From assembly GCA_040005095.1 (NCBI GenBank), contig JBDTZN010000003.1, positions 12,089 through 76,088 on the forward strand: 64,000 nt of DNA. The letters are read 5' to 3'. Of the stretch, positions 17,183-55,690 are shown piece by piece. Below the pieces are notes generated by a model. It did not search any database and was not told where the DNA came from. It saw only the letters and a list, made by a program, of their open reading frames with translations. The first letter of the stretch is position 1, and every line of letters begins with the position of its first letter. Origin of the DNA: Thermoleophilia bacterium. Lineage in GTDB: Bacteria; Actinomycetota; Thermoleophilia; Gaiellales; Gaiellaceae. The position numbers and the translations under genes were made by a program.

Positions 17183-17616
17183 TCGAGCTCGACGTCAACG
17201 GCCAGCGGTACGAGCTCGAGGCGCCGGTCGGACGCTCGCTGGCCGACGTCCTGCGCGACGACCTCGGGCTGATCGGGACGAAGATCGCGTGCGGAGAGGG
17301 CCACTGCGGCGCGTGCACAGTGCAGCTCGACGGCGTCCCGGTGCTGTCGTGCATCACGCTCGTCCACACCGTCGGCTCGCGCAAGATCACGACCATCGAA
17401 GGGCTGCGCGACCATCCGCTCGTGGACGCATTCGTCGTTGCCGACGCGCTGCAATGCGGCTTCTGCACGCCGGGCCAGATCGTCTCGGCGAGCGCGCTCG
17501 TAGCCGCGAATCCCAGCCCTTCGAAGGACGAGATCCGGCACGCGATGGCCGGAAACCTCTGCCGCTGCGGCACCTATCCGAAGATCGAGGAGGCGATTCA
17601 AGCTTGGCAAGGCTGA
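17179..17616 (+). CDS. (2Fe-2S)-binding small subunit of a xanthine dehydrogenase-family molybdenum hydroxylase
   Basis: It starts at GTG 17179. Cys clusters are CGEGHCGACTV and QCGFCTPGQI...CRCGTY. Confidence 0.9.
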   Translation: MIELDVNGQRYELEAPVGRSLADVLRDDLGLIGTKIACGEGHCGACTVQLDGVPVLSCITLVHTVGSRKITTIEGLRDHPLVDAFVVADALQCGFCTPGQIVSASALVAANPSPSKDEIRHAMAGNLCRCGTYPKIEEAIQAWQG

Positions 17617-19865
17617 TCAAGACCGAGAAGGAAGTCGAAGGCCGCTACACCGAGCAGTGGATCGTCGTCGACGAGGATGCGCTCGACCAGTGGCCTGAAG
17701 GGCCGCTCGAGGTCGTGGGTCAGGCGGTGCCGCGCATCGACGGGCACGACCGCGCGCGCGGTCTCGCCGGCTACACCGCCGACGTGCGCCTGCCCGGCCT
17801 CCTCCAGGCAGCCGTGCTCCGCAGTCCTCACGCGCACGCGCGCGTGAGGAGCATCGATCTCTCGCGGGCGCTCGCCGCCGACGGCGTTCGCGCCGCGATC
17901 GGCCCGGACGACATCGAAGGGCTCACAGACGAGCCGGCCTACATGGGCGCGCCGGTCGCCGCGGTTGCAGCCGACACGTTCGGCCAGGCGCGGGCGGCGG
18001 TCTGGCTGATCGAGGTGGAGTGGGAGGAGCTGGAGCCGCTTCTGGATCCCGACGAGGCGGTCAAGCAGGGCTCGCTCCTCGACGAGTCGGAGACGTACGA
18101 GCGCGGAGACTTCGAACGTGGACTGGTGGAGGCGGACGCCGTCGTCGAGGCGGAATACCGCACGCAGGTCGTCCTCCACAACGCGTTGGAGACGCATCAG
18201 TCGATCGCACACTGGGAGGACGGCGGGGTCACGATCTACATCTCGACCCAGTACATCTGGGGTGTGCGGGCCGCCGTCGCCAAGCTGACCGGCCTGCCGC
18301 AGGACAAGGTGCGCGTCATCTGCCTCGCGATGGGAGGCGGCTTCGGCGCGAAGAACAGCCCCGGCGACTACACGCCGATCGCAGTTGAGCTCGCGAAGCG
18401 GACGGGGCAGCCGGTGCGCTGCGCGCTCACGCGGCGCGAGGAGAACGTCGCGGCCGGCAACCGGAACGCGACGATCCAGCGGATCACCGCCGCGGCTCGC
18501 GCGGACGGCATCCTCACCGCGCTCGGCGGCGAGTTCGTGAACGCGATCGGACACGGCGGTTGGTCGTCCTCCACCGAGGGCCCGATGCAGATGCTCTACG
18601 CCTGCGAGAACATGCGGACCGTCAAGCACAGCGCGAAGCTGAACCTGCCGCCGATGGCGGCGTTCCGCGCGCCGGGCTTCGTCGAGGGGACGTTCGGCCT
18701 CGAGTGCCTGCTGGACGAGCTCGCGGCGAAGCTCGACATCGACCCGCTCGAGCTGCGCCGGCGGAACTACGCGGACTCGGACCGCCTGGACGAGCGTCCG
18801 TTCTCGTCGAAGCAGCTCGCGGAGTGCTACCGCCGCGCCGAGCCGCACTGGGCGCGGCGCGACGAGGTGCGCGCGAGCTCCTTCGGCCCGTGGAAGCGCG
18901 GCGTCGGGCTGGCAAGCCAGATCTGGTACGGCGGCGGCGGCCCTCCGTCCTATGCGTGGGTTCGCGTCGGGTCCGACGGTCATGCACAGGTCGTCACGGC
19001 GATGCAGGACATCGGCACGGGATCCCGGACCGCGATGGCGCAGATTGCCGCGGAGGAGCTCGGGATCCCGATCGACCACGTCCACGTCTCGCTCGGCGAT
19101 TCCGCGCGGGGGCCGTACTCGACCCTCTCCGCCGGCTCCTCGACCATCCCGTCGATGGGACCGGCGACGCGCGCAGCCGCTGCGGACGCGAAGCGCCAGA
19201 TCATCGAGATCGCCGCGCAACGCTTCGACGTCGAGGAGCGCGTGCTCGATCTCAAGGGCGGGAAGATCGTCTCCGCGGACGGCGGATCATGGGATCTGAC
19301 CGAGATCACCGGGCTGCTCGAGGACGCGCAGATTCTTGGCAAAGGGGCGCGCGGGCCGAACCCGACCGGGATGCGTGTGCTCACCTTCGGCGTGCAGGTC
19401 GCGGAGGTCGCGGTCGACGTAGAAACCGGCGAGGTTCGGGTCGACAAGATCGTCGCGATCCACGACGTGGGCCGCGTGATCAACACGCTCGGCGCGTCGA
19501 GCCAGGTCGAGGGAGGAATCATCCAGGGCCTCGGGCATACGCTCTCGGAAGAGCGACTGATGGATCCCGCGAGCGGGCGGATCCTGACCCAGACGCTCGA
19601 CACGTACAAGCTGCCGACGATCGCCGACGTGCCCGAGATCGTCATCGACCTCGTCGACGTGCCCGACCCGCACCTGACGAACCTCGGAGCCAAGGGTCTC
19701 GGCGAGCCGCCGATCATCCCCGTCGCCGCAGCGATCGCCAACGCGATCCGCGACGCGACCGGCGCCGACGTGCGCTCGCTGCCGATCAGCCGCGAGGAGC
19801 TGCTGAAGGCGCTACGCGAGGCCGAAGCCAAGAAGCGCGAGCCGGTTGGAACTGCTGCGTCCTAG
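17604..19865 (+). CDS. Molybdopterin-binding large subunit of a xanthine dehydrogenase/aldehyde oxidase-family hydroxylase (start uncertain)
   Basis: Motifs GGGFGAK, AAFRAPGF and AKGLGEPPIIPVAAAIANAI match the family. Candidate starts are TTG 17604, CTG 17613 or GTG 17715 (MGQAVPRIDGHDRARG...). The upstream part of track ORF 17289-19865 overlaps the 2Fe-2S gene. Confidence 0.9.
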   Translation: MARLIKTEKEVEGRYTEQWIVVDEDALDQWPEGPLEVVGQAVPRIDGHDRARGLAGYTADVRLPGLLQAAVLRSPHAHARVRSIDLSRALAADGVRAAIGPDDIEGLTDEPAYMGAPVAAVAADTFGQARAAVWLIEVEWEELEPLLDPDEAVKQGSLLDESETYERGDFERGLVEADAVVEAEYRTQVVLHNALETHQSIAHWEDGGVTIYISTQYIWGVRAAVAKLTGLPQDKVRVICLAMGGGFGAKNSPGDYTPIAVELAKRTGQPVRCALTRREENVAAGNRNATIQRITAAARADGILTALGGEFVNAIGHGGWSSSTEGPMQMLYACENMRTVKHSAKLNLPPMAAFRAPGFVEGTFGLECLLDELAAKLDIDPLELRRRNYADSDRLDERPFSSKQLAECYRRAEPHWARRDEVRASSFGPWKRGVGLASQIWYGGGGPPSYAWVRVGSDGHAQVVTAMQDIGTGSRTAMAQIAAEELGIPIDHVHVSLGDSARGPYSTLSAGSSTIPSMGPATRAAAADAKRQIIEIAAQRFDVEERVLDLKGGKIVSADGGSWDLTEITGLLEDAQILGKGARGPNPTGMRVLTFGVQVAEVAVDVETGEVRVDKIVAIHDVGRVINTLGASSQVEGGIIQGLGHTLSEERLMDPASGRILTQTLDTYKLPTIADVPEIVIDLVDVPDPHLTNLGAKGLGEPPIIPVAAAIANAIRDATGADVRSLPISREELLKALREAEAKKREPVGTAAS

Positions 19866-20679
19866 CTCGCTCGAGGAGGCCACGGCCTCGCTCGGCAACG
19901 GCGCGCGTGCGCTTGTCGGCGGGACGGAGCTCGTGCCGCTCGTCCGCGCCGGGCTCGTTCAGGCGGACACGCTCGTCGACGTCAGCGCGCTGATTCCGCG
20001 TGGCGTCGACGGCTCGCGGATCGGCGCGGCTACCACGCTCGCCGAGCTCGAGGTCGATCCCCAGATCCCCGATGCCCTGCGCGAGGCGTGCCGGCTCGCG
20101 GCGTCCCCGCAGCTCCGCAACATGGGCAGTGTCGGCGGGAACCTCCTCCAGGCGACCCGTTGCTGGTACTGGCGGCTGAAGTACCCGTGCTACCTCCACG
20201 GCGGCGACGTGTGCCATGCGAAGGCGGGCGAGCACCGCGAGCACGCGATCTTCGGCAACGAGGGCTGCGCGTCGGCGCATCCCTCCGATGTGGCCGCGGC
20301 GCTCGTCGCCCTCGGCGCCTCGCTGCGCACGACGAGCCGCGAGCTCTCGGTGGCCGACCTGTATCGCCTGCCGACCGACGACGACCGAGAGCTCACGACG
20401 CTCGAGCCGGGCGAGCTGATCCTCGAGCTGGATGTACCCGCTCCCGATTCGAGCGTCTATCTCAAGGCGATGGAGCGCCAGCGTTTCGCGTTCCCGATCG
20501 TCGGGGTCGCGGCGGCGCGCACTGGGGACATGACGCGGATCGCCCTCGCCGGCGTCGCGCCGATCCCGTGGCTGCTCGCCTCCCCAGAGGCGCTTGACGA
20601 GGCGACGCCGCTGCTGCGGACCGGATACAAGGTAGACATCGCGCGCGCGCTCGTCCGGCGAGCCCTCGAAGCGCTGTGA
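19846..20679 (+). CDS. FAD-binding medium subunit (CoxM/XdhB-like)
   Basis: It starts at TTG 19846. ALVGGTELVPLVRAG, NMGSVGGNL and the CO-dehydrogenase flavoprotein-like C-terminus support the call. Confidence 0.85.
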   Translation: MELLRPSSLEEATASLGNGARALVGGTELVPLVRAGLVQADTLVDVSALIPRGVDGSRIGAATTLAELEVDPQIPDALREACRLAASPQLRNMGSVGGNLLQATRCWYWRLKYPCYLHGGDVCHAKAGEHREHAIFGNEGCASAHPSDVAAALVALGASLRTTSRELSVADLYRLPTDDDRELTTLEPGELILELDVPAPDSSVYLKAMERQRFAFPIVGVAAARTGDMTRIALAGVAPIPWLLASPEALDEATPLLRTGYKVDIARALVRRALEAL

Positions 20680-21374: not shown

Positions 21375-21860
21375 GTGCTTTTGGCGGCCGGCGCGGCGAC
21401 GCGGTTCGGCTCGCCCAAGCAGCGTCTCTTGCTGCCGGGGATCCTCGAGCGGGTGCGCGCGAGTTGCGTCGACGACGTGGTCGTCGTGGTCGGCGCGCAC
21501 GACGTGGATACCGAGGCGCGCACCGTTCGCGCCGACGAATGGGAACGCGGGCCGGGTGCGTCGCTGCGCGCCGGCCTCGACGCGCTGTCGCCCGAGACCG
21601 AGGCGGCGGTGGTCATCCTCGCGGACGGTCCGAATCTCGCCTCGGCGGCGATCGATCGTGTCGTCGAGGCGTGGCGCGCGGACGGTTCGCCGGTGCTCGC
21701 CGCGAGCTACGGCGGCGTGCGCGGCCATCCCGTCCTCCTCGCCCGCGCGGTCTGGGCGAGCGTGCCCGACGAAGGGGCTCGGGCGCTCGAGCCGCAGCTC
21801 GTCCCGTGCGACGACCTGGGCGCTCCAGGCGACGTCGATTCTGCCGATGATCTTCAATAG
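21375..21860 (+). CDS. MobA/MocA-like nucleotidyltransferase (molybdenum cofactor cytidylyltransferase-like)
   Basis: The N-terminus is LLAAGAATRFGSPKQ. ILADGP and GHPVLL are typical of MocA-type proteins encoded next to Mo hydroxylases. GTG 21375 is the first start after an in-frame TAG. Confidence 0.75.
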   Translation: MLLAAGAATRFGSPKQRLLLPGILERVRASCVDDVVVVVGAHDVDTEARTVRADEWERGPGASLRAGLDALSPETEAAVVILADGPNLASAAIDRVVEAWRADGSPVLAASYGGVRGHPVLLARAVWASVPDEGARALEPQLVPCDDLGAPGDVDSADDLQ

Positions 21861-49492: not shown

Positions 49493-50793
49493 ATGGGTGC
49501 GCGGATCGAGCGGCTGAAACGGACGTTGCATGTGGGGCGCGTCGCGCGGCAGAGTGGTTTGCTGCGCGTGCTCGGCGAGATCGGCGTCGTCGGCGACCGG
49601 CCCGCCACGCGCGAAGGCGCGCGCAGGTTCCGGCTCGCGCTCGAGGAGCTTGGCACGACCTACATCAAGCTCGGCCAGCTCCTCTCGTCCCGTCCCGACC
49701 TGCTCCCAGACGTTTACATCGAGGAGCTCGACCGGCTCGTCGACCAGGTGCCACCCGTTCCGTTCGCGGAGATCGACCGGACGATTCGTGAGGAGCTGCC
49801 GGACGACGTGTTCACGAGCGTCGATCCGGAGCCGCTCGCGACCGCGGCCCTGGGTGACCGAGCGGGTGCTCGTGCTCGAGCGGATCGACGGCGAGAAGGT
49901 CAGCGAGGGCCACGGGCTCTCGGAGGAGAGGAGCCGCGACCTGGCGCGTTCCTTCTTCCGCGCGTACGTGCACCAGGTGACCGTCGACGGCGTCTACCAC
50001 GCTGATCCGCACCGCGGAAACGTGCTCCTGACGCCCGACGGCCGGCTGGCGCTGCTGGACTTCGGCCTGCTCGGGCGGCTCGACGACGACACGCGGAGGA
50101 ACCTCGCCCTGCTCCTGATGGCGGTGGCACAGAACCGCGCGGACGACGTCGCGGATCTCATCCTCTCCTTTCGCTCACCGACCTGTCCTCCAACGAGGCC
50201 GGTTTTCGCGCCGAGCTGCGCAGGAAGCTCCCCCGGTACCAGTGGCGCCCGCTCTCCGGGATTCAGGCGGGAGAGGCACTCGCCTACCTCCAGCGCATCT
50301 CGGTGCGGTATGCGATCCGCCTCCCGCCGAGCTTCGCACTCGTAGGGAAGACGCTGTCTCAGGCGACTCGATCGCGCGGATGCTCGACCCGGCGCTCGAC
50401 CCGATTCAGTTGCTCGAGGAGGACGCGCTCGAGGGGATGATTATGGAGGCGGAGCGGCGCCTGGAGCCAGGCTCGCTCTTCTCGCTGCTCTTCACGCAAC
50501 TCGAGCCGCTCGTGAAGATGCCACGGCACGTCAGCCACCTCGTCGGCCAGCTCGAGACCGGGACGATGAAGGTCGGGATCGTCCCGACCGACCTGGGCGA
50601 GATCGAGGCGGTCGCGCGGTCGGCGGCGAACCGGATTGGCGCAGCGCTGATCGTCGTGGGCCTGCTGATCTCGTCGGCCCTCCTCGCGCGTGTCCACGAC
50701 CTGCCGTGGGTCGCGGCCGTCGGTTTCGTCCTCGCATCCGTCCTCGGGCTGTACATGGTCTGGAAGATCATTCGAACGCCCGGCGAGCTCTAG
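49493..50793 (+). pseudogene. UbiB/ABC1-family atypical kinase gene inactivated by an internal deletion and at least two further frameshifts
   Basis: Homology runs through four frame segments. Segment 1 is ELGTTYIKLGQLLSSRPDLLPDVYIEELDRLVDQVPP...DPEPLATAA. Segment 2 is WVTERVLVLERIDG...GVYHADPHRGNVLL...LLDFG...ADDVADLILS. Segment 3 is LTDLSSNEAGFRAELRRKLPRY...IRLPPSFALVGKTLSQA. Segment 4 is DSIARMLDPALDPIQ... with two TM helices. The VAVKV/ATP-lysine region is missing. Confidence 0.75.
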
Positions 50794-50863: not shown

Positions 50864-50890
50864 GCGACGGCGGCCTATGGTCGCCGTCGC
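50864..50890 (+). terminator. Hairpin GCGACGGCG-N9-CGCCGTCGC followed by CTTGTTCTGG; putative intrinsic terminator
   Basis: Seen directly in the sequence, about 70 nt after the UbiB-like stop. Confidence 0.55.
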
Positions 50891-51033: not shown

Positions 51034-52071
51034 GTGGAAGCTCACACCAGCGACGTCAAGCTCACCGACCTGGCCTCCTGCGGCGGTTGCGCCGCCAAGT
51101 ACTCGGCAGCCCGCCTCGAACAGCTGCTGGCCGGCTTCGTGCCGATGGACGAGGAGAACCTGCTCGTCGGACTCGCGCCTGCCGACGACGCTGCCGTCTA
51201 CCGCCTCGACGAGGAGCGCGCGCTGATCTTCACGCTCGACTTCTTCCCACCCGTCGTCGACGACCCCGGCGACTACGGCGCGATCGCCGCGACGAACGCG
51301 CTCAACGACGTCTTCGCGATGGGCGGCACGCCGCTCCTGGCCCTTTCGATCGCCGCGTTCCCCGAGGAGCTACCGGTTGAGATGCTCGGCGCGATCTTCG
51401 CTGCCGCGGACGCGCAGGTACGCGCGGCCGGCGGGCTGCTCGCGGGCGGGCACACGATTCGCGACGCCGAGCCGAAGTACGGGCTCGCGGTGGTCGGGAC
51501 CGTCCACCCTGACGGGATCTGGCCGAAGAACGGCGCGCAGCCGGGCGACGCCTTGTTCGTGACCAAGCCGCTCGGGACCGGGCTGATCATGACCGGCTGG
51601 AAGAAACAGCTCGCCGGCTCGCAGCAGCTCGAGCGCGCGATCGGCTGGATGCGCACGCTGAACAAGGATGCCGCCGAGGTCCTGCGCGGGCTCGCGCCGA
51701 ACGCCGTAACCGACGTCACCGGCTTCGGGCTCTTCGGCCACGCCCACGAGGTCGCCGAGCGGAGCGGCGTGCAGATCCGGCTCGAGTCTGGGCGATTCCC
51801 GGCGATCGACGGTGCGCTCGACATGGCGCGCAAGGGTGTGCGGACGAGCGGCGATCCGCGGAACCGCGACTTTGCGGCTCGACACGTTTCCTCCGAAGGC
51901 GTCTCGGAGGTGCTCGTCGCGCTCGGCTACGACCCGCAGACGGCCGGCGGGCTGCTGGTCTCGCTCCCGGCGGAGAAGTCTGCGGCGCTGGAGGCAGAGT
52001 TCGAGGGTCGCGGGCTCTTCCTGCGGCGCATCGGCTCGGTGGAAGAAGGATCCGGCGTCGTCGTCGAGTGA
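51034..52071 (+). CDS. selD: Selenide, water dikinase (selenophosphate synthetase), Cys form
   Basis: KLTDLASCGGCAAKYSAARLEQLL holds the active-site Cys/Lys loop, and the product has the AIR-synthase-like PurM fold. The start is a GTG with GGAGA 5 nt upstream. Confidence 0.92.
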   Translation: MEAHTSDVKLTDLASCGGCAAKYSAARLEQLLAGFVPMDEENLLVGLAPADDAAVYRLDEERALIFTLDFFPPVVDDPGDYGAIAATNALNDVFAMGGTPLLALSIAAFPEELPVEMLGAIFAAADAQVRAAGGLLAGGHTIRDAEPKYGLAVVGTVHPDGIWPKNGAQPGDALFVTKPLGTGLIMTGWKKQLAGSQQLERAIGWMRTLNKDAAEVLRGLAPNAVTDVTGFGLFGHAHEVAERSGVQIRLESGRFPAIDGALDMARKGVRTSGDPRNRDFAARHVSSEGVSEVLVALGYDPQTAGGLLVSLPAEKSAALEAEFEGRGLFLRRIGSVEEGSGVVVE

Positions 52072-52595
52072 CTCGCGGCATGGTGCATGGGCGGTTCCAG
52101 CCCTTCCATAACGGCCATCTCGAGTACCTGCACGGCGCAGCCGAGCGCTCGGACGAGGTCTTCGTCGGGATCACGAATCCCGACCCGAAGCGGATCAAGC
52201 CGGAACCCAGCGATCCTCTGAGGCATCTGCCCGAGTCGAACCCGTACTCCTACGCCGAGCGCCTGCTGATGGTGAAAGCGGCCGCCGGCGACCTCGGTCT
52301 CGATTCGGCGCGTGTCCACGTGATCCCGTTCCCGGTCAACGAGCCGGAGCTCTGGCCTGCCTATGTGCCCGCGGGCGTCACGCAGTACTTGCGCCTGTTC
52401 TCGGAGTGGGGTGGGACGAAGCTCGAGCGCATGCGGGAAGCGGGCTATGAGGTCGTCATCCTCGACGAGGGCGCGGAGAAGGAGATCTCCGGCGCGGTCG
52501 TGCGGGCCGCGCTCCGGGACGGCGGCGACTGGGAGAGCCTCGTGCCCCCCGGTGTGGCGCGCGTCCTCCGCTCACTCGAAGCGATTCCCGCTTAG
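52068..52595 (+). CDS. Cytidylyltransferase-fold nucleotidyltransferase, NadM-type NMN adenylyltransferase-like
   Basis: It carries the GRFQPFHNGH motif. Its start overlaps the selD stop (GTGA). Confidence 0.8.
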   Translation: MTRGMVHGRFQPFHNGHLEYLHGAAERSDEVFVGITNPDPKRIKPEPSDPLRHLPESNPYSYAERLLMVKAAAGDLGLDSARVHVIPFPVNEPELWPAYVPAGVTQYLRLFSEWGGTKLERMREAGYEVVILDEGAEKEISGAVVRAALRDGGDWESLVPPGVARVLRSLEAIPA

Positions 52596-52604
52596 GCTCA
52601 TCGA

Positions 52605-53852
52605 GTGCTTCCGATCGTCGTGATCCTGCTGGACGGGCTGGGCGACCGCGCGCATGCGGTGCTCGGCGGACGGAGCGGGAACGAAGCCGCGGAGACGCCG
52701 AACCTCGACCGGCTGTGCGCCTCAGGATCGTGCGGCCTCCTGTATGCCGTAGGCCCCGGGCGAGCGCCGTCGAGCGAGGTCGCGCACTGGTCGATGCTCG
52801 GGTACCGGCCGGAGGAATTTCCGGGCCGCGCCGTCTTCGAGGCCTTCGGCCGCGGCCAGGAGGTCGACCCTGCCGAGGTGCTCGCCTACGCTGCACTGCG
52901 CCCCGCCGAGCGTCGGGCTGACGGCCTCTGGCTGACCGGCCGGCCCGATCCGAAGGCCGATGCGGACGAGGCCTCACGGCTCGTCGAGCGCTGCAACGGA
53001 CTGGAATTTGAAGGGCTTCGCTTCTCGCTCGAACATGTGTGGCGCGGCGAGGCGATCCTCCGCGTCTCCGGCGGCGCGGACGACCGGGTCACCGACACCG
53101 ATGCGTTCTTCCGCGACCGCCACCCCGTCCTGCGCCCGCAGCCGCTCGCCCCGGAAGCCGAGCGCACGGCGCGCGCGGCCGAGGCGTGGACCCGGCGCGT
53201 GCTGGAGCTCCTCGACGGCGAACGCTTCAACGTGATCACGCTCAAGTGGTGGGGCCGGCTTCGCGAGCACCCGAGCTTCCTCGAACGACACGGGATCACG
53301 GGCGCGTTTGTCGCCGAATCGGCGTTCCTGCGCGGGCTCGGACACGCGCTCGGCCTCGAGGCGGTCGAGGAGCCCGAGACGGACGATCCGGTCGCGGACC
53401 TGCAGCGCCGCCTGGAGCACGTTCGCAAACGGCTCGACGCGGGCGACACGTTCGTCTTCATCCACCAGAAGACGACCGACGCGGCTGGGCACACGAAGGA
53501 TCCGCGGATCAAGCAGCAGACGATCGAGACCCTCGATGCGGCGCTCGCCGAGCTGCCGACCGACCGCGCGATCGTCTGCTTGACCGGTGACCACGCGACG
53601 CCCGCATCCCCTGACGTGATCCATTCGGGCGACCCTGTGCCGCTTGTCGTTGCCGGGCCTGGAGTGCGCGCCGACGGGGTCACGGAGTTCGGCGAGACGA
53701 CGTGTGCCGGGGGGATCCTCGGGCAGCTGCGCGGCCCCGACCTGATGCCGGTGCTTCTGAACGCGGCCGACCGTCCGCTCTTCCTGGGGTCGCGGCCGAC
53801 GCCGTACGACGGCGCCGACGGGTACCCGGCTCTGCTCGAACCCCTTCTCTAG
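52605..53852 (+). CDS. Archaeal-type cofactor-independent phosphoglycerate mutase-like metalloenzyme (ApgM family, alkaline phosphatase superfamily)
   Basis: ILLDGLGD...NLD, DAAGHTKD and LTGDHATP match the family. A 415-aa product lying 9 nt after the previous stop. Confidence 0.85.
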   Translation: MLPIVVILLDGLGDRAHAVLGGRSGNEAAETPNLDRLCASGSCGLLYAVGPGRAPSSEVAHWSMLGYRPEEFPGRAVFEAFGRGQEVDPAEVLAYAALRPAERRADGLWLTGRPDPKADADEASRLVERCNGLEFEGLRFSLEHVWRGEAILRVSGGADDRVTDTDAFFRDRHPVLRPQPLAPEAERTARAAEAWTRRVLELLDGERFNVITLKWWGRLREHPSFLERHGITGAFVAESAFLRGLGHALGLEAVEEPETDDPVADLQRRLEHVRKRLDAGDTFVFIHQKTTDAAGHTKDPRIKQQTIETLDAALAELPTDRAIVCLTGDHATPASPDVIHSGDPVPLVVAGPGVRADGVTEFGETTCAGGILGQLRGPDLMPVLLNAADRPLFLGSRPTPYDGADGYPALLEPLL

Positions 53853-53862
53853 ACTCGAACCG

Positions 53863-54780
53863 ATGGCCGTCGAGACATCCCGGCTCGCCCGGCTCCGGGC
53901 GGTCGAGCTCTCACCCGCGGGCTTCCGGAGGCTCGCCGCTCTGAGCGCGCTGATGCTGTTCGCGATCGTCTCGACCGGAGCGACGGTGCGCCTGACCGCG
54001 TCCGGCCTCGGCTGCGAGCACTGGCCGGGCTGCCAGGCGGGCAATCCGTTTCCGGCCAGCGGCGTCCACTCCTACATCGAGTTCGGGAACCGGATGGTCG
54101 CCGGCGTCACGATCTTCGTCACGCTGTTGCTTGCGGTCGCTGCGTTCTCGACGCCGGGCCTGTCGCGCCGGACGGCTTGGCTCACGCTGGCCGTCTTCGT
54201 CGGCACGCTTGCCCAGGCGCCGCTGGGCGCGATCACCGTCTATCTGAACCTCCATCCGCTGATCGTGATGCCGCACCTGATGCTCTCGATGGTGCTGCTC
54301 GCCTGGGCGGTGATCGTGCTGCTCGACGCCCTGCGGCTCGAGCGCGGGGAAGCGCCGCCGACGCTTCCCGAGGAGGTCCGTCGCTTTGTGCCCGCTCTGC
54401 CGGTCGCGTGCTTCGGCCTGCTCGTCTCGGGTGCGTTCGCGACCGCGGCCGGCCCGCACTCAGGTGGCGATGAGGTCGCGCGCTTCGGCACGCTCGACGT
54501 CGCGCTGGTGTTCCATGCCGCGTCGGTTGCCGCGTTCGGTCTCGGGCTGATCTTCCTGCTCGGCTATCTCGTCGCCCGACGCGACCGCTCACCACTCGCT
54601 TTCCGCGGAGCGGCCGTCGTGGTCTTTCTCACTTTGGTCCAGATGGGGCTCGGCGAGCTGCAGTACCGAACGCATCTCCCGTGGGGGCTCGTCCTGGCGC
54701 ACGTGGCGGTCAGCGCGGCTGTCTGGAGCAGCGCCGTTGCGCTCGCGAGCCTGATTCGGCGGCCGCTGAGAGCCACGTAG
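53863..54780 (+). CDS. ctaA: Heme A synthase (COX15/CtaA)
   Basis: GATVRLTASGLGCEHWPGC and HSYIEFGNRM plus multiple TM helices with conserved His match the family. Confidence 0.85.
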   Translation: MAVETSRLARLRAVELSPAGFRRLAALSALMLFAIVSTGATVRLTASGLGCEHWPGCQAGNPFPASGVHSYIEFGNRMVAGVTIFVTLLLAVAAFSTPGLSRRTAWLTLAVFVGTLAQAPLGAITVYLNLHPLIVMPHLMLSMVLLAWAVIVLLDALRLERGEAPPTLPEEVRRFVPALPVACFGLLVSGAFATAAGPHSGGDEVARFGTLDVALVFHAASVAAFGLGLIFLLGYLVARRDRSPLAFRGAAVVVFLTLVQMGLGELQYRTHLPWGLVLAHVAVSAAVWSSAVALASLIRRPLRAT

Positions 54781-54790
54781 ACTTTCCGGG

Positions 54791-55690
54791 GTGGCGGAAG
54801 AGATCCGAATCTCGCGTCGGCCGAGCCTGAACGAACCGGTGTTGATCACTGCGTTTCGGGGCTGGAACGACGGCGGCCAGGGCGCTTCGCTTGCCGGCGG
54901 ATATCTCGCAAAGGTCTGGCGGGCGGCGCGGTTCGCCGAGATCGAGCCCGAGACCTTCTTCGACTTCCAGGCGACGCGGCCGCAAGTCTCGCTCGTCGAC
55001 GGGCTGACGCGGAAGATCGAATGGCCTGACAACGCCTTCTATCACGCGCGCATTCCGGGAACGGACCGCGATGCGGTCCTCCTGCTGGGGATCGAGCCGA
55101 ATCTCCGCTGGCGGACGTTCACCGATCTCATCGTCAGCCTCTCCACCGAGCTCGGCGTCGAGCTGGCGATCACGCTCGGCTCGCTCCTCGCCGACGTTCC
55201 GCACACGCGTCCGGCGCCGGTGACCGGGAGCGCGAGCGACCAGGCGCTCGTCGAGTCGATGGGCCTGCAGGCGTCGCGCTACGAGGGGCCGACCGGCATC
55301 GTCGGCGTGCTGCACGACGCGTGCAAGCAGTCAGGCATCCCGTCAGTCAGCCTCTGGGCCGCGGTACCGCATTACGTCTCGCTCGCGCCGAGCCCGCGGG
55401 CCGCGCATGCGCTCTGCGTGCGCCTCGGCGAGCTGCTCGAGGTGGAGGTCGAGACTGGAGAGCTGGCGGAGGCAGCCGAGACCTATTCGGAGCAGGTCAG
55501 CGAGGCGGTCGCCTCGGACGTCGACACCCAGACGTACGTCGAGGAGCTGGAGCAGCGCAGCGACGCGATCGACGAGGTCACGGAGGCGGAGATCCCCTCC
55601 GGCGACTCCCTCGCCGCCGAGCTGACGCGGTTCCTGCGCGAGCGCGAAGCGGGCGGCGAGTCGGATCCTCCGCGCGACCCGCCTTCCTAG
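54791..55690 (+). CDS. PAC2-family (proteasome assembly chaperone 2-like) protein
   Basis: LITAFRGWNDGGQGAS, LLLGIEPNLRW and YEGPTGIVGVL followed by an acidic C-terminal tail match the family. Confidence 0.8.
   Translation: MAEEIRISRRPSLNEPVLITAFRGWNDGGQGASLAGGYLAKVWRAARFAEIEPETFFDFQATRPQVSLVDGLTRKIEWPDNAFYHARIPGTDRDAVLLLGIEPNLRWRTFTDLIVSLSTELGVELAITLGSLLADVPHTRPAPVTGSASDQALVESMGLQASRYEGPTGIVGVLHDACKQSGIPSVSLWAAVPHYVSLAPSPRAAHALCVRLGELLEVEVETGELAEAAETYSEQVSEAVASDVDTQTYVEELEQRSDAIDEVTEAEIPSGDSLAAELTRFLREREAGGESDPPRDPPS

Follow-up and report, generated by a model that had tools for sequence, protein, structure and literature searches.

A selD-linked nucleotidyltransferase and ApgM-like phosphotransferase pair as a candidate selenophosphate-consuming module in Actinomycetota

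Does the selenide, water dikinase gene selD at this locus serve a use of selenophosphate beyond those already described? To our knowledge, only four such uses are established: selenophosphate goes into selenocysteine (Sec) and 2-selenouridine, it provides some Mo hydroxylases with their labile selenium cofactor, and through the selenosugar made by SenB it leads to selenoneine and ovoselenol. The stretch analysed here, called the window throughout, comprises 64,000 nucleotides of a Thermoleophilia bacterium of the family Gaiellaceae (assembly GCA_040005095.1, contig JBDTZN010000003.1, here C45). The source is a metagenome-assembled genome (MAG) of 2.49 Mb that is 85% complete, and the region is about 70% G+C. 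In the window, selD runs into a gene for a nucleotidyltransferase (NT), which is followed by a gene for a relative of the archaeal phosphoglycerate mutase ApgM (APGM):

51034 to 52071, plus strand: selD, selenide, water dikinase of the Cys type, 345 aa (TIGR00476; AIRS and AIRS_C domains)
52068 to 52595, plus strand: NT, NadM-like HxGH nucleotidyltransferase, 175 aa (PF01467 and motifs)
52605 to 53852, plus strand: APGM, ApgM-like phosphotransferase of the alkaline phosphatase superfamily, 415 aa (Metalloenzyme and PhosphMutase domains)

NT and APGM form a mobile two-enzyme module. Its co-occurrence with selD extends over the Actinomycetota and to a single Burkholderiales MAG. In most lineages outside the Gaiellaceae, the module also includes a gene for an acyl-CoA-dehydrogenase-like flavoprotein (ACAD). 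We are confident that SelD is functionally linked to this module, because adjacency recurs in different arrangements, a SelD paralog is dedicated to the module, co-occurrence is near-perfect, and the module is found in selD genomes with no other known client. We also lean, with much less assurance, towards the reading that the module is a selenophosphate-consuming pathway with a logic like that of the enzymes PhpF and PhpG, and hence a candidate fifth SelD-dependent trait. An undescribed selenophosphate-consuming route had been raised in the initial annotation of this DNA. That idea gains support from the repeated linkage of the pair to selD, also in client-less genomes, but it is not needed for the selD of this organism, which is explained by selenocysteine.

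The comparison covered 151 genomes of the class (including 23 of the window's family), all 111 genomes of a second Thermoleophilia family, 201 Pseudonocardiaceae, and a phylum-wide sample of 400 genomes. The second family shows the pattern expected of an orphan selD. Of its 111 genomes, 31 carry the module (scored by NT), 55 carry selD and 43 carry selA. Nearly all module genomes have selD (29 of 31, the remaining two being 73% and 80% complete), as do 26 of the 80 module-less genomes. Thirteen genomes have selD and no selA; 11 of these carry the module, and in 10 of them no more than 4 kb separates selD from NT. One genus lacks selA in all nine of its genomes, and selD and the module are found there in the same five. 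Neither selU, nor SenB above its cut-off, nor YqeB was found in the 13 genomes with selD and no selA (two more were searched alongside), and tRNA-Sec was not found in the four selA-less genomes tested, which are 94–97% complete. The best matches to the tRNA-Sec model in such genomes (46–53 bits) were rejected, as ARAGORN identifies them as tRNA-Ser; the control genome G570 yielded a tRNA-SeC beside selA. Because the selA-less genomes hold no other known user, consumption of selenophosphate by the module would explain them better than supply.

The SelD proteins themselves point the same way. On the SelD tree, a single clade (100/99) unites the module-linked SelDs and sets them apart from the selA-linked ones of the second family; the module-linked proteins retain the catalytic Cys and Lys. 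Two selD copies, one of them in the module, occur in each of G570, G781 and G666. The first of these genomes, 100% complete in three contigs, has one module-linked and one selA-linked selD. Conversely, the module-adjacent selD is the only one found in selA-bearing genomes of the Gaiellaceae and of genus g299, which belongs to the second family. A sole SelD that sits beside the module in Sec-using cells argues for selenium rather than sulfur as the element handled. A different selD is seen in G537 (locus L155, contig C6, 53000–57000), a genome with neither selA nor the module. Its product reads G-A-G-C-G-C-T, with Thr in place of the catalytic Lys, and the gene may be a decaying remnant left after loss of the Sec trait.

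Gene orders in the second family, mapped by tblastn, vary considerably. The commonest form has selD>ACAD convergent with NT>APGM (11 loci), and in most loci of the family selD and ACAD overlap or lie no more than about 12 nt apart. There is also a divergent form (L130), an order NT>APGM>selD>ACAD (L129), and an order selD> <APGM <NT <ACAD (L023); in seven further loci ACAD and NT-APGM occur without selD. The genes flanking the four-gene cluster (LexA, SecG, GH15, GNAT, BBE) are unrelated housekeeping genes, and neither a transporter nor another conserved partner was detected among them. L129 (G557, contig C5, 50000–69000) is chimeric. Its NT-APGM part belongs to APGM clade II, with about 40% identity to that of the window, and its selD-ACAD part is 69–77% identical to the clade-I type. 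From these identities, the NT-APGM and selD-ACAD halves seem to move as separate units.

The linkage is not confined to this class. Among the Pseudonocardiaceae, NT occurs in 11 of the 201 sampled genomes, and selD is present in all 11 versus 124 of the 190 genomes without NT. Two members of the family (loci L176 and L177, genomes G781 and G666) have an ACAD>selD>NT>APGM operon and a second selD elsewhere in the genome. Three other carriers have a set ACAD>NT>APGM: Actinomycetospora cinnamomea, a Burkholderiales MAG and the complete genome CP002593.1 (locus L172), which we take to be that of Pseudonocardia dioxanivorans CB1190. In the two of these that were searched, A. cinnamomea and the MAG, selD is present. 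Four further metagenome contexts show the coupled trio ACAD>NT>APGM with no adjacent selD. The phylum-wide sample added only two carriers, one with ACAD>APGM>NT at a contig end (G342) and one a partial match. Overall, selD linkage takes at least five gene orders in at least three lineages. On the APGM tree, selD adjacency is found in both major clades and requires at least four changes.

In every module locus, NT and APGM either neighbour each other or are fused. Two single-chain NT-APGM fusions of 618–619 aa were found (P0295 and P0302), the first of which scores 193.7 bits against the PhpG model NF038358. NT relatives at 36–45% identity (P0356, P0247, P0252, P0266 and P0365) are fused to a PEP-synthase-like dikinase (P0356), NB-ARC/STAND NTPases or HAD hydrolases, so evidently the same NT fold has been put to use in widely differing settings. 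Two kinds of apparent relatives were set aside. NT homologues of family f6 (L024 and L025, about 40% identity) have no adjacent APGM and probably belong to another subfamily. The 834-aa protein P0267 looks like a SelD-NT fusion, but its SelD match is partial and just short of the cut-off (124.1 versus 125 bits), and it may be a gene-calling artefact of the GTGA overlap described below. As separate observations, one of the four metagenome contigs carries selA two genes upstream of ACAD>NT>APGM (L183:1-1176, minus strand), another physical link between the module and a selenium gene, and an isochorismatase-family gene lies divergently upstream of ACAD>NT>APGM in A. cinnamomea and on a metagenome scaffold (L174:5166-5681 and L182:3068-3583, both minus strand). 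More than 3000 NT homologues are present in a collection of 5.8 billion proteins, and the module is abundant in soil Gaiellaceae.

Are NT and APGM simply housekeeping enzymes that happen to stand behind selD? NT carries the motif GRFQPFHNGH, as noted at the outset, and a C-terminal ISGAVVR (SGxxVR), both aligned to the archaeal nicotinamide mononucleotide (NMN) adenylyltransferase (NMNAT) 1f9a; this enzyme and 1ej2 are its closest solved structures. Against the NMNAT models TIGR01527 and NF002243, NT falls below the cut-offs (73.7 versus 181.2 bits and 77.1 versus 127 bits). Relative to 1f9a, it has an 11-residue insert with a family-invariant ITNPD and Arg52. APGM has the domains PF01676 (Metalloenzyme) and PF10143 (PhosphMutase). 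Its closest solved structures are archaeal ApgMs (3idd and 2zkt), so its description as an archaeal-type phosphoglycerate mutase relative is sound, and its motifs DGLGD, SSE, TDAAGH, GDHATP and HSGDPVP align with Thermoplasma ApgM (3idd). APGM too is below the mutase cut-offs (240.7 versus 320 bits for TIGR00306 and 224.3 versus 489 bits for NF003104), and it scores 151 bits against the PhpG model, for which the cut-off is 545.

The rest of the genome holds candidates for both housekeeping roles, namely a GpmI on another contig (590.9 bits) and a full-length NadD-like gene. The distribution of the pair is patchy. NT occurs in 12 of the 151 class genomes and in 4 of the 23 sampled family genomes, plus this one. 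Orthologous APGM is found in the same four of the 23, and the other 19 have no ApgM-like gene at E<=1e-10; selD is present in 20 of the 23. Because of the low scores, the presence of GpmI and a NadD-like gene elsewhere, and this patchy distribution, NT and APGM are predicted to be accessory enzymes. The earlier view that the downstream genes are something other than an ordinary NMNAT and phosphoglycerate mutase is thereby strengthened.

For the organism studied here, the selenium question has a conventional answer. Selenocysteine genes were found on other contigs: selA on C63 (523.8 bits), with selB immediately downstream (317.6 bits), and tRNA-Sec at the start of C12 (66.2 bits; SeC with anticodon tca according to ARAGORN). 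With this complete set in place, selD is accounted for, and it is predicted to serve selenocysteine synthesis. There was no match to selU (TIGR03167) in this genome and 14 others, this one being 85% complete. SenB (TIGR04348) reached at best 55.5 bits here against a cut-off of 300, and none of the 15 genomes had a match above it. YqeB (TIGR03309) had no match at E<=1e-5 in this genome and 14 others; YqeC was not searched for. Thus the initial annotation was right that the window holds no canonical selenium partners, and the genome-wide search that it called for turned up a canonical explanation of selD.

The Mo hydroxylase cluster that had been noticed some 30 kb from selD is real, and consists of the following genes:

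17289 to 19865, plus strand: Mo-binding large subunit of a Mo hydroxylase of the xanthine dehydrogenase family
19846 to 20679, plus strand: FAD subunit of the Mo hydroxylase
21375 to 21860, plus strand: MobA-like NTP transferase gene

Since YqeB is absent from the genome, this cluster is not tied to the known selenium-cofactor trait.

The identification of the window gene as selD is secure in terms of family. It scores 334.9 bits against TIGR00476 (cut-off 125) and has the PurM-like domains PF00586 (AIRS) and PF02769 (AIRS_C); against the equivalog model NF002098 it lies slightly below the cut-off (290.5 versus 299 bits). In the loop ...KLTDLASCGGCAAK..., Cys19 and Lys22 align with the catalytic pair of E. 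coli SelD (3u0o), Cys17 and Lys20, and the G-C-A-A-K loop recurs in the Aquifex chain 2yye. Domains, score and aligned catalytic residues together predict a genuine selenophosphate synthetase, as first proposed, and it is the sole selD match in this genome (G000). SelDs of pair-bearing Gaiellaceae read S-C-G-G-C-A-A-K at this loop (window 51076–51099); they have an additional Cys, placed three residues ahead of the catalytic one. Most pair-less Gaiellaceae read A-G-G-C-A-A-K; the additional Cys is already present in L117, the closest relative without the pair.

The close packing described originally is also as stated. The selD stop codon TGA (52069–52071) overlaps the NT start GTG at 52068 to give GTGA (an alternative ATG start lies 12 nt downstream of the GTG), and the APGM reading frame begins 9 nt past the NT stop TAG. 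Two more genes follow, and a hairpin precedes selD:

50864 to 50890, plus strand: terminator-like hairpin seen in the sequence, 12-bp stem with 10 G-C pairs, 3′ of a broken UbiB-like gene
53863 to 54780, plus strand: COX15/CtaA-like membrane protein, a backbone gene that follows selD directly in pair-less Gaiellaceae
54791 to 55690, plus strand: PAC2-family (proteasome-assembly-chaperone-like) protein, a backbone gene and the last of the likely operon

The gaps from selD through NT, APGM and the ctaA-like gene to PAC2 are −4, 9, 10 and 10 nt, and a sequence scan found no strong terminator hairpin between selD and PAC2. Because of these short gaps and the lack of a strong internal hairpin, the five genes are likely one transcription unit, the start of which is likely marked by the hairpin at 50864–50890. 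The ctaA-like gene is in the same predicted operon but outside the module. Upstream, a UbiB/ABC1-like kinase gene (49493–50790, plus strand) is broken over three frames, with residues ~121–218 unmatched. Its counterpart in the relative G063 is one intact open reading frame of 532 aa; the broken copy is either a pseudogene or the product of MAG assembly errors.

How did the pair come to stand behind selD in this family? Ten pair-less Gaiellaceae genomes share a backbone of MFS, HTH-TPR, selD and PAC2 genes. In nine of the ten, the ctaA-like gene directly follows selD, and in eight there is no room for another gene. The NT-APGM pair is therefore an insertion or deletion exactly between selD and ctaA. 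On the SelD tree, the pair-bearing Gaiellaceae form one derived clade (100/99) nested among pair-less relatives, which indicates that the pair was probably gained, beside a resident selD, by the ancestor of one Gaiellaceae subclade. The 80 closest loci (L029–L108; 76–91% identity), which all come from this one family, have selD upstream in 78 cases and APGM downstream in 78, and all four gaps are at or near contig ends. The synteny of the trio is thus kept in Gaiellaceae, as one event, and beyond them selD is linked to the pair in several independent arrangements. Each of the four pair-bearing genomes of the family that were tested carries selA. In L016 (8982-9866, minus strand) and in about 20 of the 80 loci, a gene for a cupredoxin-like protein (294 aa, about 1 kb) is inserted between NT and APGM, and the two are about 1000–1190 nt apart there. 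An apparent selD-APGM adjacency in G016 was discarded, as the coordinate 72430, at which selD ends and an APGM-like gene starts, falls on different contigs and coincides by chance.

Several observations weigh against a selenophosphate-consuming module. Many of the compared genomes are MAGs. The co-occurrence counts share phylogeny and are not independent, and the base rate of selD is high (50–78%). Within the Gaiellaceae, the linkage of selD and the pair is a single event followed by vertical inheritance in a larger syntenic block, one that also joins selD to the unrelated ctaA-like and PAC2 genes. Sec machinery is present here and in every pair-bearing member of the family tested, so selD needs no extra client, and the family has no ACAD partner (the best match in this genome is 34% identical). 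Most clade-II modules, those of Actinomycetospora, Pseudonocardia, the Burkholderiales MAG and the four metagenome contigs, are not beside selD. Two genomes, G091 and G537, have selD without selA and without the module. Finally, APGM fits the ApgM model (241 bits) better than it does the PhpG model (151), and NT is likened to PhpF through their shared PF01467 membership.

Three other explanations were weighed. The adjacency could be fortuitous, with an ordinary NMNAT and a cofactor-independent phosphoglycerate mutase behind selD, as the closest solved structures, the JGI annotation of close NT homologues as NMNAT, and the unrelated neighbours of Gaiellaceae selD would allow. We strongly disfavour this and regard it as highly improbable, given that both proteins are below their family cut-offs, that GpmI and a NadD-like gene are encoded elsewhere, that 19 of the 23 sampled family genomes do without the pair, and that the invariable pairing or fusion of NT and APGM comes with selD linkage in at least five orders and three lineages. 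A more serious alternative places the module upstream of or beside SelD, in selenium supply, salvage or detoxification, for instance by releasing or buffering selenide or by handling toxic selenium species. A Sec client is already at hand in Gaiellaceae, in genus g299 and in many clade-II carriers, and the ACAD fold includes C-S-cleaving desulfinases as well as DszC/SfnB-type oxygenases, which turn up as weak matches. In the 11 module genomes with selD and no selA, selU, SenB or YqeB (the four tested also lack tRNA-Sec), however, there would be nothing to supply. A nucleotidyltransferase with a phosphotransferase suggests activation and transfer, not release, and a dedicated SelD paralog argues for local use of its product. 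We consider a role in supply unlikely.

The chemistry might also not concern selenium at all. In that case NT and APGM would activate a phosphorus or sulfur anion or a phospho-metabolite in the manner of PhpF and PhpG, and the SelD paralog would make thiophosphate or another product, or else the selD link would be regulatory or historical. The many clade-II modules away from selD fit such a reading, as do the NT relatives fused to HAD, STAND NTPase and PEP-synthase-like dikinase domains, the score of the window SelD just below the NF002098 cut-off, and a published SelD-like family proposed for sulfur metabolism (PMC4210487). Yet the module-adjacent SelD is the sole SelD of Sec-using Gaiellaceae and g299 genomes and must make selenophosphate there. 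The catalytic Cys and Lys are kept, and selD is present in 12 of 12, 29 of 31 and 11 of 11 module genomes in the three samples. We find a selenium-free role distinctly unlikely, and continue to prefer a selenophosphate-consuming module.

What such a module would do can be sketched by analogy, and its substrates, step order and product are all proposed in that spirit. SelD would produce selenophosphate. From this and an NTP, NT would form an NMP-selenophosphate anhydride and PPi, the ApgM-like enzyme would pass either the selenophosphoryl group or the selenium on to an acceptor such as a hydroxy acid, and the ACAD-like flavoprotein, where present, would oxidise the product. The scheme is modelled on PhpF, a member of PF01467, on PhpG, an ApgM homologue, and on the HxxH enzymes of the ATP sulfurylase type. 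The latter also adenylylate a bare oxyanion. It is a tentative proposal, and one that we would not be surprised to see replaced, that nucleotide-activated selenophosphate is made in the committed step and that transfer to a small acceptor by the ApgM-like enzyme gives soil Actinomycetota a new class of selenium metabolite or cofactor, of the Se-P or Se-C kind. In an alternative chemistry, NT might activate a phospho-metabolite and selenophosphate would then displace the nucleotide, as in SenB.

If the proposal is true, the bond chemistry, Se-P or Se-C, would be new, and the use of selenium in soils would have a new marker. Should it prove wrong, there is still an uncharacterised and widespread enzyme pair of the PhpF/PhpG type outside phosphonate metabolism. 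In either case the module is compact (two to four genes) and is present in cultured strains, A. cinnamomea and the strain of CP002593.1. It offers a concrete, testable candidate for the orphan-selD question that has stood open since 2008. Earlier work argued that where selD occurs without Sec and without selenouridine, a further selenium trait is to be suspected (Haft and Self 2008, PMC2276186; Zhang et al. 2008, PMC2432076; Peng et al. 2016, PMC5029168). We found no published description of this cluster in full-text searches, which did not cover the literature exhaustively.

The module resembles several known systems without matching any of them. In fold, NT and APGM are like archaeal NadM (MJ0541, 1f9a) and ApgM (3idd, 2zkt), and they share the HxGH and SGxxxR motifs of the former and the metal ligands and Ser-containing loop of the latter. 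They differ from these enzymes in their sub-cut-off scores, in the NT insert with ITNPD and Arg52, and in a patchy, accessory distribution tied to selD. The closer functional parallel is with PhpF and PhpG of phosphinothricin tripeptide synthesis, where a PF01467 HxGH nucleotidyltransferase and an ApgM homologue are likewise encoded by adjacent genes; in relatives of NT-APGM the two are fused. PhpF is a CTP:phosphonoformate nucleotidyltransferase of PF01467 (PMC6697681), with its activity described in 10.1101/2025.05.01.651723, and the same Pfam family also holds the Fom1 cytidylyltransferase. PhpG is the CMP-5′-phosphonoformate--3-phosphoglycerate phosphonoformyl transferase (NF038358). Unlike PhpF and PhpG, the module has selD as its partner and elsewhere also an ACAD-like flavoprotein, and the annotated neighbours (about 45–58 kb of the window, and the related loci) include no PEP mutase, other phosphonate gene or enolase-like PhpH.

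Among selenium traits, the reasoning from orphan selD that we apply to the module is that of the work on YqeB and YqeC, although neither this genome nor the selA-less ones have YqeB. Neighbours reported in the 2016 survey of orphan SelDs were isochorismatase-like, ABC ATPase and cysteine-desulfurase-like proteins, not NT, APGM or ACAD (PMC5029168). The sen cluster was found through genes overlapping selD, the same logic as used here (10.1101/2022.04.13.486033), and the ten families that most often overlap selD in that study (Kayrouz et al.) comprise neither NT nor APGM nor ACAD. The partner enzymes of the sen cluster are entirely different, and SenB was not found in this genome (55.5 versus 300 bits). 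Nevertheless, the module is like the sen and ovs clusters for selenoneine and ovoselenol (SenC, which is SelD, with SenB and SenA) in two respects: selD, sometimes as a second copy, stands amid small-molecule enzymes, and both Sec-bearing and Sec-less genomes carry the cluster.

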